IMG/VR virus record: IMGVR_UViG_2529293173_000003
Length of the DNA stretch: 4,814 nucleotides
DNA from: a virus
Lineage: Duplodnaviria > Heunggongvirae > Uroviricota > Caudoviricetes
Direction: 5' to 3' (one strand)
Made by a program: the position numbers. Below, piece by piece: positions 1 through 3,000 of this stretch; the first letter of the stretch is position 1; every line of letters begins with the position of its first letter.

Positions 1-3000
1 TACATCAAACGCCGCGACCAGGAGAACGAGGAGATTGCGCTTACGGTTGGGAAGCTGCGTGTTGAGCTTGAAGCAGCAAAATCAAAACTCAACGAGCAGC
101 GTGAATATTACGAGGGAGTAATCGCGGATGGAAGTAAGCGCATAGCAGAACTGGAAAAACAATGCGCCGAATGGGAGCGAAAAGCATTAAGCAACTTTGA
201 AGAGTGTGCTGCGATGGCTGAACGTATCGAAGAGATGCAGACAAAATCTGCACCAGATTCGTTTGGCATCATCGGTGAAAATATTCGAACACAGGACAAT
301 CGAATAACGTCAGATCCCATGTTTTGTGTGTATCAAAAGCGCGAAATCGCTGTTGATGCTGATTATGACCATGACCGGATTGTCTGGGTTGACGAAGATG
401 GCAATGAAGCCAATAAACGCCATAGTCGTCGTCTCGAGCTACTTCATGAAAACTTTCGAGAGCCACCAGAAAAATGGCGGCGCGTTGCTGTGAAAGATAT
501 TGATGAATTCGTTACCTGCTGTTTCACCGAACAGGGTTGTAAAGACTACCTGGCAGTCAATGGTCACAATCTTCGCTTGCCATTTATATATGTAAAAAGC
601 GGTTTCAGGAACGCTGAATATATCGGCATAAGAAACTGGCTTGCTGGCATTCGCATCAAAGGAGAGTGATATGGCGTTAACACACCGCGAACTCTGTCAG
701 ATTGCGTACAAGTTCCTTAAGCGCAACGGTTTCAAGGTTTGTTTTCATGACCGCTTTATAGCTGTAACCAGTACCGGAGAACAGCCAGATGCTATGGGAT
801 TCAGAAATTCAGCATCATGCCTGATTGGCGAAATGTTCTCGTGCTGACTTGTTGGCAGATAGAAAAAAGCGTTTTCGTAAAAATCCGTCTCTTGGAATGG
901 GCGACTGGCGATTCTTTATTAGTGAGCCGGGAATTATTTCAATTGAGGATTTACCACCTGGCTGGGGATTACTTCACGTTGTTAACGGAAGAGTACGGAA
1001 AGTACATGGGTGGCCCAAGGGTAATTGCTGTTGGGGTAATCCTGACGATAAGCCATTTACTGGAAATAAGCAGGTTGAATGCGATTACATGTTGTCTGCA
1101 TTAAGGCGCATGGAGTTGAGAGGGCACCTTAATGAAATATATGACGGTGTAATTGTTAATAAGAAAGAAGGAAACGCGGCATGACCACTATTACCGACAA
1201 AGAACTGATTAAAGAAATCAAAGAGCGCATAGGCAGCTTGGACGTTCGAGACAATATTGAGCGCCGTGCTTATGAAATTGCACTGGCATCGCTGGAAGCA
1301 GAACCGATAGCGTGGGAATGCGGTGAAAACATAATCCTGTTTAACCCTGACACAGTTGAAGCATACGCAAAACGTGCGGAAATATCACCTAAACCACTAT
1401 TCTCCGCGCCGCCAGCGCTGGTAGTGCCTGATAAGTTGCCGCGTGAATACAGAAACGGTTGGCCTCTTGCGTATAGTGATTATGCTGAAGGCTGGAACGA
1501 CTGCCGCGAAGCCATGCTTCAGGGAGATAAATCATGATTAATCGTATCAAGCTGGAGCACATCCTCGAATATGCCAGGCAGCAGAGGCATATTGGTCAGC
1601 ATTGTAAAATTCCACCAGGAGATATGGTTGAAATCATGGAGATTGCCATGCGCAAGGCTGGCAACTCTCCGGTAACTCCGGATGGTTGGATAAGCTGTAG
1701 TGAGCGAATGCCGAACGATAAACAGTATGTTTGGTGTTGGGGGAAGTCTTACGGCTGGACTGAGTGCGATACCTTCGAAGGGTATTACGATTGTTCGAGA
1801 AACAAATGGTGGGCAGTTACTGACAATGGGGAAGAACCGGCATCGAAAGTAACCCACTGGATGCCGCTACCGGAGCCGCCGCAGGAGGTGAAATGATGAA
1901 TTGGCCTGAAGCATTCACCGCAGTTGGAGTTGCAATAGCGGTGGCATTTATTCTGTATTCGCTTTTCCGCTGGGGATAAAGGAATGTTCGCTCTGATTCA
2001 ACGTGGTCAGATATACACGGACAGAGCCGGATACCCTGTGGTGATTACTCGCAGTACTCAGCACTCAGTGTTCTTTCGACGCATGGACGGGCGCTCCGGA
2101 CGGGTACGCATTGGTGAGTTCAACAACCTGTTCGAACATATTGACCAACAGGAGTACCGCAAAATTCTGGCGGGCACTGAGCAGGAAATGCGCCTGAAAA
2201 AATTACGCGCAATGCAACGGAGGTGATACATGCATACGGCTTTTGAGTTCTGGGTTCGCAAGACATTCGGCAATCGCTACGACCTGACCCGTGATGTCGA
2301 CGGCTTCTACTGCCGTGAAGTTGTGAAACGAATGTTTGACGTGTGGTGCCACTGCCGTGGATGAAAGTTTTATGAGGTTGGCATGCAGACAATCATCTAT
2401 CAGATAACCCCCAGCAAATGGTGTACGGAGAGAGTCCTTATTGCATCAACAGGGCTAAAGCCCGGCACCATCGAGCGGGCCAGAAGAAAGTCATGGATGC
2501 AGGGAAAAGAATACCGCCATTACGCTGTAGAAGGTGATCCTGGGCATTACAGTGAATGCCTGTACAACATCGAAGAAATTATGCGATGGATCGAAAACCA
2601 GAAACAACCAGGTGCCAAAAATGCAAGTTCCGGTTAACCTGTTAATGCTCCTGGACGTCTGGGAGGTTTAATGAGTAACGCATCATACCCGACAGGCGTT
2701 GAAAACCATGGCGGATCACTCCGTATATGGTTTCACTATAATGGCAAACGTGTCAGAGAAAACCTCGGTGTTCCTGACACAGCCAAAAACCGGAAGATCG
2801 CTGGTGAACTTCGCACTTCCGTTTGTTTTGCAATCAGAATGGGGAGTTTCGACTACGCCGCGCAGTTCCCTAATTCCCCTAACCTGAAACACTTTGGTCT
2901 GGGAAAAAGAGAGATAACCGTTAAGGCACTTTCGGAAAAATGGTTGGACCTTAAGAAAATTGAGATTTGTGCGAATGCACTTAACCGTTACCAGTCAGTA

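Follow-up and report, generated by a model that had tools for sequence, protein, structure and literature searches.

A small gene before xis in a Stx1-type lambdoid prophage: coding status, predicted fold and module context

In phage lambda and in Shiga toxin (Stx) phages, the genes between exo and xis modulate the decision between lysis and lysogeny without being essential (PMC8614690). These exo-xis accessory genes form a positional class and not a homology family. An open reading frame (ORF) of 44 codons, here called ORF44, belongs to this class by position, since it is small, co-oriented and placed between the recombination genes and xis; it lies at bases 2230-2364 of the + strand of the window, the whole 4,814-nucleotide stretch of viral DNA analysed here (IMG/VR record IMGVR_UViG_2529293173_000003). 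Sequence comparison indicates that ORF44 is almost certainly a genuine protein-coding gene under purifying selection, and its product is an already catalogued hypothetical phage protein. The gene seems to be an early accessory gene situated at a junction of module exchange and not a dedicated cofactor of the excisionase Xis.

Lambda Orf55 (lambdap35) and Ea8.5 occupy the same niche as ORF44, as the last small non-essential early pL genes from ea22 to xis (PMC8614690), but neither is homologous to it (hhalign probability 0.2% and 0.7%, respectively). Ea8.5 matches PF20735, which ORF44 does not, and is a homeodomain/zinc-finger hybrid that binds zinc via conserved ligands, which ORF44 lacks. Orf55 has been modelled as three strands and one helix, whereas the ORF44 product is predicted to form a helix-hairpin-helix. 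ORF44 itself is not covered by the exo-xis modelling paper.

Like recombination directionality factors, the ORF44 product is a small basic protein whose gene lies at the int end of prophages, and an ORF44 homologue is fused once to a DUF1233 Xis. ORF44 is one gene away from int, a position conserved in most loci, but a separate bona fide xis lies between them. ORF44 has no match to an excisionase family (DUF1233, Exc, HTH_17/AlpA, PrtN or the excisionase PHROGs), and its predicted fold is neither a winged helix nor a helix-turn-helix (HTH); by any test, the product is not an excisionase.

Linker sequences at lambdoid module junctions promote exchange. Like these boundary linkers, ORF44 is a conserved stretch whose neighbours on both sides can be exchanged, with at least 12 gene types upstream and at least 6 excisionase families downstream, and its switch point lies within its last codons and the motif TGAGGT. 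The lambdoid linkers are short and intergenic, whereas the ORF44 patch is a protein-coding gene under purifying selection. The family closest to ORF44 is its own: PHROG 3871, which includes RefSeq protein WP_000556583.1 and is also found in BP-4795, phiP27, Fels-1 and Klebsiella prophages, shows no difference from it and has no Pfam model, NCBIfam model or structure.

Coding status and distribution

The product of ORF44, MHTAFEFWVRKTFGNRYDLTRDVDGFYCREVVKRMFDVWCHCRG, is small and basic and matches PHROG 3871 over residues 1-44, on profile positions 1-44 of 48 (E=1.1e-32, 113 bits). It is identical to WP_000556583.1, named 'hypothetical protein' by PGAP and present in hundreds of E. coli genomes, and corresponds to gp03 in the annotation of phage YYZ-2008. 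The sequence-only reading, in which ORF44 was pointed out, was thus mistaken in calling it unannotated, because WP_000556583.1 is present in the exactly matching record; the only records without the annotation are older ones, among them VT1-Sakai (AP000400), phiP27 and certain LC5678xx entries. The local details of that reading are correct: the coordinates, the ATG start and the length of 44 residues, the GGAGG Shine-Dalgarno at 2219-2223 with 6-nt spacing to the ATG at 2230, the 156 bp that separate the DUF4222 stop (2226) from the xis ATG (2383), the C-x11-C-H-C arrangement in the peptide, and the downstream DUF1233 excisionase (Pfam E=2e-29) that is followed by a tyrosine integrase. A literature search with the peptide and the WP accession gave no match.

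Conservation was examined in a set of 100 loci, whose counts are swollen by closely related E. coli prophages and which are phylogenetically non-independent. The ORF44 frame is intact and starts with ATG in all 100 loci, which come from Escherichia, Salmonella, Citrobacter, Klebsiella, Pantoea, Raoultella and Serratia; the product has 48 residues in 59 loci and 44 residues in 36. It is the sole frame open in 42 of 42 distinct sequences. Among 16 distinct species-level sequences, diversity is 2.5-3 times higher at third codon positions (0.465) than at the other two (0.187 and 0.154). In the same sequences the ORF44 frame has a ratio of nonsynonymous to synonymous polymorphism (pN/pS) of 0.24 and a median ratio of nonsynonymous to synonymous substitution rates (dN/dS) of 0.12, and the non-mirrored frames give values above 1. 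The sequence-only reading had proposed homology and conservation searches, and had named as refuting either the lack of a conserved frame in related elements or an untranslated leader of xis in this region. These searches recovered the frame throughout related prophages. Between bases 1800 and 2750 no promoter-like site and no Rfam match were found, and a single terminator-like match, which lies inside int (2711-2724), does not rise above shuffled sequence; the RNA fold of bases 2215-2395 is less stable than that of shuffled sequence (z=+1.55). The intact conserved frame and the lack of an RNA element or promoter therefore speak against an untranslated leader.

A word-indexed search returned 52 protein clusters, which are from Enterobacterales throughout. 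Only 33 clusters came out of an exhaustive profile search that covered 1.84 billion representatives, and the family is therefore small and narrow. The 16 species-level genomes with ORF44 belong to Escherichia, Shigella, Citrobacter, Trabulsiella, Superficieibacter, Scandinavium, Raoultella, Pantoea and Serratia, and the gene is also present in 457 viral contigs and 49 sequenced phages. Two copies are attributed to Flavobacteriia, one in a contig labelled Chryseobacterium sp. 18061 (L012, CACSKA010000001.1) and one in Elizabethkingia phage EKP1 (OM284015.1, 22923-23066). Both are of the enterobacterial type, with 77-87% amino-acid identity and typical lambdoid neighbours, which suggests contamination or a mislabelled host and not a real occurrence outside Enterobacterales.

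Predicted fold and the cysteine and histidine residues

A compact mini-domain made of a helix, a short beta-hairpin and a second helix is the high-confidence prediction for the ORF44 product; the AlphaFold2 (AF2) model has a predicted local distance difference test (pLDDT) score of 91.6, with helices at residues 2-13 and 30-43 and a bridge between residues 21 and 27. The invariant residues are aromatic and charged, F5, Y17, D22, G25, Y27, E30 and R34, and not the cysteines and histidine. Y27 is retained in all 79 distinct members, and F5, Y17 and G25 are retained in 78 each. Among fold matches in BFVD, besides one family member, all are insignificant (E>=0.06) and all are uncharacterised.

The Cys/His pattern consists of C28, C40, H41 and C42, and the sequence-only reading took it as suggestive of a small metal-binding module. 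All four residues are present in 41 of the 79 distinct members and the three cysteines in 52. Taken singly, C28 is retained in 69, C40 in 63, H41 in 52 and C42 in 67; C40 is replaced by R, S, V or A, H41 by Y, E, D, K, A or W, and C42 by A, L, R, F or W. The four residues are wholly absent from the distant members P0057, P0067 and P0073 and from the copy at locus L020. The structure prediction with a check of the zinc site, which the same reading had proposed, puts C28 right in front of helix 30-43, whose C-terminal end carries C40-C42, so that the two sites would be about 18 A apart, a distance inferred from secondary structure, if the model holds. Moreover, C40, H41 and C42 are three consecutive residues, which cannot jointly chelate one ion. 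A zinc module would have conserved ligands, a fold that brings them together and likeness to a known zinc-binding family; in ORF44 the ligands vary, the model holds them apart, no zinc-finger family was matched in Pfam, and no similarity in sequence or fold to a known zinc-binding family was found. The sequence and the predicted fold thus do not support a conserved metal site, and the proposed metal-binding module is not upheld.

Two larger proteins, P0081 (L105, 88-507) and P0080, are marginal relatives (ORF44 profile E about 4e-4 to 6e-4). They have an ORF44-like N-terminal segment that is followed by other modules, which in P0081 include a Lar/Elf1-like zinc ribbon, and the mini-domain may also serve as the N-terminal module of larger phage proteins. 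A Pfam 'Phage_phiTE_015' flag on P0081 was not reproduced. Transfer of function from P0080 and P0081 was rejected, since the Pfam matches lie on the C-terminal zinc ribbon of P0081 and are below the cut-off, and the match to the ORF44 profile is marginal.

Operon context and the junction with xis

In the window, the integration end of a Stx1-type lambdoid prophage, bases 1900-2700 match many E. coli O157:H7 chromosomes and phage YYZ-2008 at 100% identity and VT1-Sakai at 99.9%. The order on the + strand is an Ea22-like gene, two small ORFs, orf118, DUF551, a 28-codon hydrophobic ORF, DUF4222, ORF44, xis and int. TraR/Orf73-like and Ea22-like genes lie upstream of ORF44 according to the matching RefSeq annotation, and record NZ_CP133119.1, which matches the window exactly, has on one strand the exonuclease gene, followed further on by TraR/DksA-like, Ea22-like, DUF551, DUF4222, ORF44, xis and int. 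ORF44 has no paralogy with its window neighbours orf118, DUF551 and DUF4222. The features of the junction are as follows.

1984..2226, + strand: DUF4222 gene (Pfam PF13973, E=9.3e-16; PHROG 285), stop codon at 2224-2226
2219..2223, + strand: Shine-Dalgarno GGAGG of ORF44, within the last DUF4222 codons, 6 nt 5' of the ATG
2230..2364, + strand: ORF44 coding sequence, ATG start, 44 codons (PHROG 3871; WP_000556583.1)
2362..2364, + strand: TGA stop of the 44-residue form, from comparison of the junction with locus L066
2373..2378, + strand: TGAGGT, the old stop of the 48-residue form and the xis Shine-Dalgarno (GAGG 2374-2377), 5 nt before the xis ATG
2383..2637, + strand: xis, DUF1233-type excisionase (PF06806, E=2e-29; PHROG 539 'excisionase'; annotated xisR)
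2671..3957, + strand: int, tyrosine integrase with arm-binding domain (PF12167 and PF00589; annotation)

The upstream neighbour is DUF4222 in 80 of 100 loci, always with a 3-nt gap to the ORF44 ATG, and elsewhere it is one of at least 12 unrelated gene types, which mostly overlap the ORF44 start. At the other end, the 48-residue forms finish with ...CRGLxVV TGAGGT N4-7 ATG, irrespective of which excisionase family comes next, and the stop codon therefore forms part of the excisionase Shine-Dalgarno. The 3-nt gap after DUF4222 and the stop within the Shine-Dalgarno suggest, from geometry only, that DUF4222, ORF44 and xis would be arranged for coupled translation from one mRNA.

The window carries a variant of this junction. 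Its sequence, ggaTGAaagttttatgaggttggcATG, was compared with that of L066, gggCTGaaagttttaTGAggttgacATG; L066 reads GGG CTG AAA GTT TTA TGA GGT and the window reads GGA TGA AAG TTT TAT GAG GT. By this comparison, the 44-residue allele is a derivative of the usual 48-residue form by a 1-nt deletion, in which the C of the Leu45 codon CTG was lost. The frame now stops four codons early, the last four residues are missing, and the stop is 10 nt upstream of the xis Shine-Dalgarno, while the old TGAGGT remains at 2373-2378 as the xis ribosome-binding site. The spacer from ORF44 to xis is six codons long and in frame.

In about 95 of 99 loci the gene directly downstream of ORF44 belongs to an excisionase family, at a gap of -11 to +18 nt. 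It is of the DUF1233 type in 75 loci, of PHROG 2917 in 9 and AlpA/HTH_17-like (PHROGs 66/2790 and 1553) in 7, with single loci for the lambda-Exc type (PF07825, PHROG 629) and the PrtN type (PF11112, PHROG 1300). These excisionases make up six unrelated families (PHROGs 539, 2917, 66/2790, 1553, 629 and 1300). Near-identical ORF44 proteins that vary in the tail only occur with different families, the tail LSVV with DUF1233 in 21 loci and the tail LNVV with PHROG 2917 in 2, and one ORF44 protein, the T20P variant, is found with both DUF1233 and PHROG 2917 excisionases. Integrase families and orientation also vary among ORF44 loci. Some copies lie in nin regions, one of Serratia after NinG (L017) and one between NinH and an MT-A70 methylase (L103), and P0057 is an ORF44 homologue with another ORF between it and a xis-like gene. 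The Rac prophage of K-12, which is excision-competent, carries a DUF1233 XisR together with an Int (IntR) of 43% identity, but no ORF44 homologue was found in it.

At locus L020 (3962-4336, Logan DRR526068) a divergent, Cys-less ORF44 homologue is joined in frame to a DUF1233 Xis, and neither a stop codon nor a Shine-Dalgarno precedes the Xis ATG; this fusion is present on two contigs. The gene caller began the product (P0074) at an internal ATG, so helix 1 was missed. A second apparent ORF44-Xis fusion, the 135-residue P0082 (L109, 17-424; ENA ERZ807465 NODE_755), proved to be a sequencing artefact and was discarded. The 1.9-kb contig at whose end it lies has 2.6x coverage, and the ORF44 half of P0082 is rich in changes to Gly, which include a change from stop to Gly and cease where xis begins. 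P0082 is a caution for fusion mining in metagenome protein catalogues.

Bases 3958-4814 contain an att core (3994-4014) and a DinI-like gene (4241-4489). The window is matched from end to end only in NZ_CP133119.1, a circular 47,874-bp 'plasmid unnamed2' of E. coli O157:H7 PNUSAE145590, in which int is followed by a 21-bp att repeat (tccctgtcacgttacgcgcgt) and then by a DinI-like/tail-fibre/Lom phage end. Chromosomal copies have the mlrA/yehV host flank after int, which is absent at that place in NZ_CP133119.1. Since the att core and the opposite prophage end come after int there, the window probably spans the attP junction and the 'plasmid' is probably an excised circular Stx1-type phage genome.

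The 28-codon hydrophobic ORF, MMNWPEAFTAVGVAIAVAFILYSLFRWG, is at 1893-1979 (+), and its start codon overlaps the DUF551 stop as ATGA. About 40 related loci, the distant L020 included, have kept it in six variants that share the pattern M(S/N)WP(E/D)AF...RWG, and it has no PGAP annotation in either RefSeq record examined. It probably encodes a small single-pass membrane peptide and is the truly unannotated small ORF of the operon. Further upstream, the overlapping ORFs at 671-847 and 825-1184 (+), of 58 and 119 residues in different frames, look like two halves of a single frameshift-split gene; RefSeq lists in this stretch just a 177-bp coding sequence and has a gap, and neither half has a Pfam match.

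Possible roles and their meaning

The favoured explanation is a composite, in which ORF44 is an accessory gene in the early leftward operon, belongs to its variable exo-xis part as the last gene before xis-int, and has the roles proposed here; it is judged rather probable as a whole, and its functional part is much weaker than its coding part. The product would be a small binding protein for a host or phage macromolecule and not a metal module, with the conserved aromatic and charged surface most likely binding the partner. The coding sequence and TGAGGT may form a homology patch where phages swap xis-int modules, which would explain the position of ORF44 before six unrelated excisionase families. 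Plausibly, translation of ORF44 via the stop within the Shine-Dalgarno also helps to deliver ribosomes to xis. That the same ORF44 is found with unrelated Xis families, that copies are present in nin regions and that Rac lacks it together point to an accessory gene and not to a dedicated Xis cofactor, so that the fallback offered by the sequence-only reading, an unrelated accessory protein, fits best.

Several points weigh against this explanation. ORF44 has no Pfam, NCBIfam or PADLOC (defence) family, and its fold has no relative in PDB and no functionally described relative in BFVD. The literature searched, including the supplements to the papers on Sakai ribosome profiling and on the Enterobacteriaceae microproteome, yielded no expression data on ORF44. 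The consistent placement before excisionases could mean a functional tie to excision, and the real L020 fusion is of the same kind; at species level, an excisionase is directly adjacent in only 12 of 16 loci and within two genes in 2 more. The evidence for translational coupling is geometric.

Some of these observations can also be read otherwise. ORF44 might be a third, so far unrecognised component of the xis-int module, a dedicated excision helper that acts with Xis, Int or the attachment-site complex or sets the dose of Xis, which is considered unlikely. This would account for its place directly upstream of excisionases of six families, both in the whole locus set and in the 12 species-level loci, for the ORF44 stop embedded in the excisionase Shine-Dalgarno and for the L020 fusion. 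Near-identical ORF44 proteins with unrelated excisionases, however, show no co-variation with the supposed partner, the L017 and L103 copies are far from xis, P0057 is parted from its xis-like gene, Rac has the related XisR and Int without ORF44, the integrases differ in family and orientation, and only one of the two fusions is real. A role in excision or Xis regulation, which the sequence-only reading thought conceivable, therefore keeps the striking adjacency in its favour and is a positional inference only. Somewhat less likely still, the family could be a generic companion of recombination directionality factors, which would set the amount or activity of Xis at induction whatever its family, through translation and perhaps through the product; the L020 fusion would then be a 'Rosetta stone' for the link between ORF44 and Xis.

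The remaining alternatives carry little weight. That ORF44 is a zinc-binding Cys3His module and a metal-dependent regulator is improbable: the four residues are complete in the window allele and in about half of the members, three cysteines are more widespread, and the neighbouring lambdoid exo-xis proteins Ea8.5 and Orf73/TraR-like are zinc proteins (PMC8614690), but the aromatic and charged core is better conserved than the ligands, which mostly give way to non-ligand residues (R, A, L, W, Y) and are all missing from distant members, and the spacing in the model, the adjacent C-H-C, the lack of a zinc-finger match and the unrelatedness to Ea8.5 all argue against it. More improbable again is a regulatory upstream ORF or leader, in which translation and not the product controls xis, or a non-coding leader RNA. 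The small size, the place immediately 5' of xis and the stop within the Shine-Dalgarno would suit it; yet a regulatory leader peptide would drift freely in sequence outside any arrest motif and stay constantly linked to the regulated gene, whereas in ORF44 the whole peptide is under purifying selection, a confident globular fold is predicted by AF2, the protein is conserved without a downstream xis in L017 and L103, and no RNA family or unusual structure was found in the region. The least credible option is a real gene on the opposite strand, at 2203-2352 or 2120-2392. Such frames stay open in the window and in a large number of loci, and a mirrored low dN/dS of 0.24 was obtained for one of them, but each antisense frame is broken in at least 18 of the 42 distinct sequences, with varying starts and lengths, while the + frame is open in every one, has the lower dN/dS, a conserved ATG and a Shine-Dalgarno, and belongs to an operon that is wholly on the + strand.

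ORF44 is a catalogued hypothetical gene, so the finding adds little, and the new points are descriptive: the origin of the 44-residue allele by a 1-nt deletion, the stop within the Shine-Dalgarno that is shared across excisionase families, and one natural fusion. Older Stx-phage records (VT1-Sakai, phiP27) miss a real gene at this locus, and a zinc-finger annotation of its Cys/His pattern should be avoided. ORF44 marks a sharply defined exchange junction of xis-int modules, at which its stop overlaps the excisionase ribosome-binding site. Should ORF44 tune Xis expression or excision in Shiga-toxin prophages, this would bear on prophage induction and on the spread of toxin phages.

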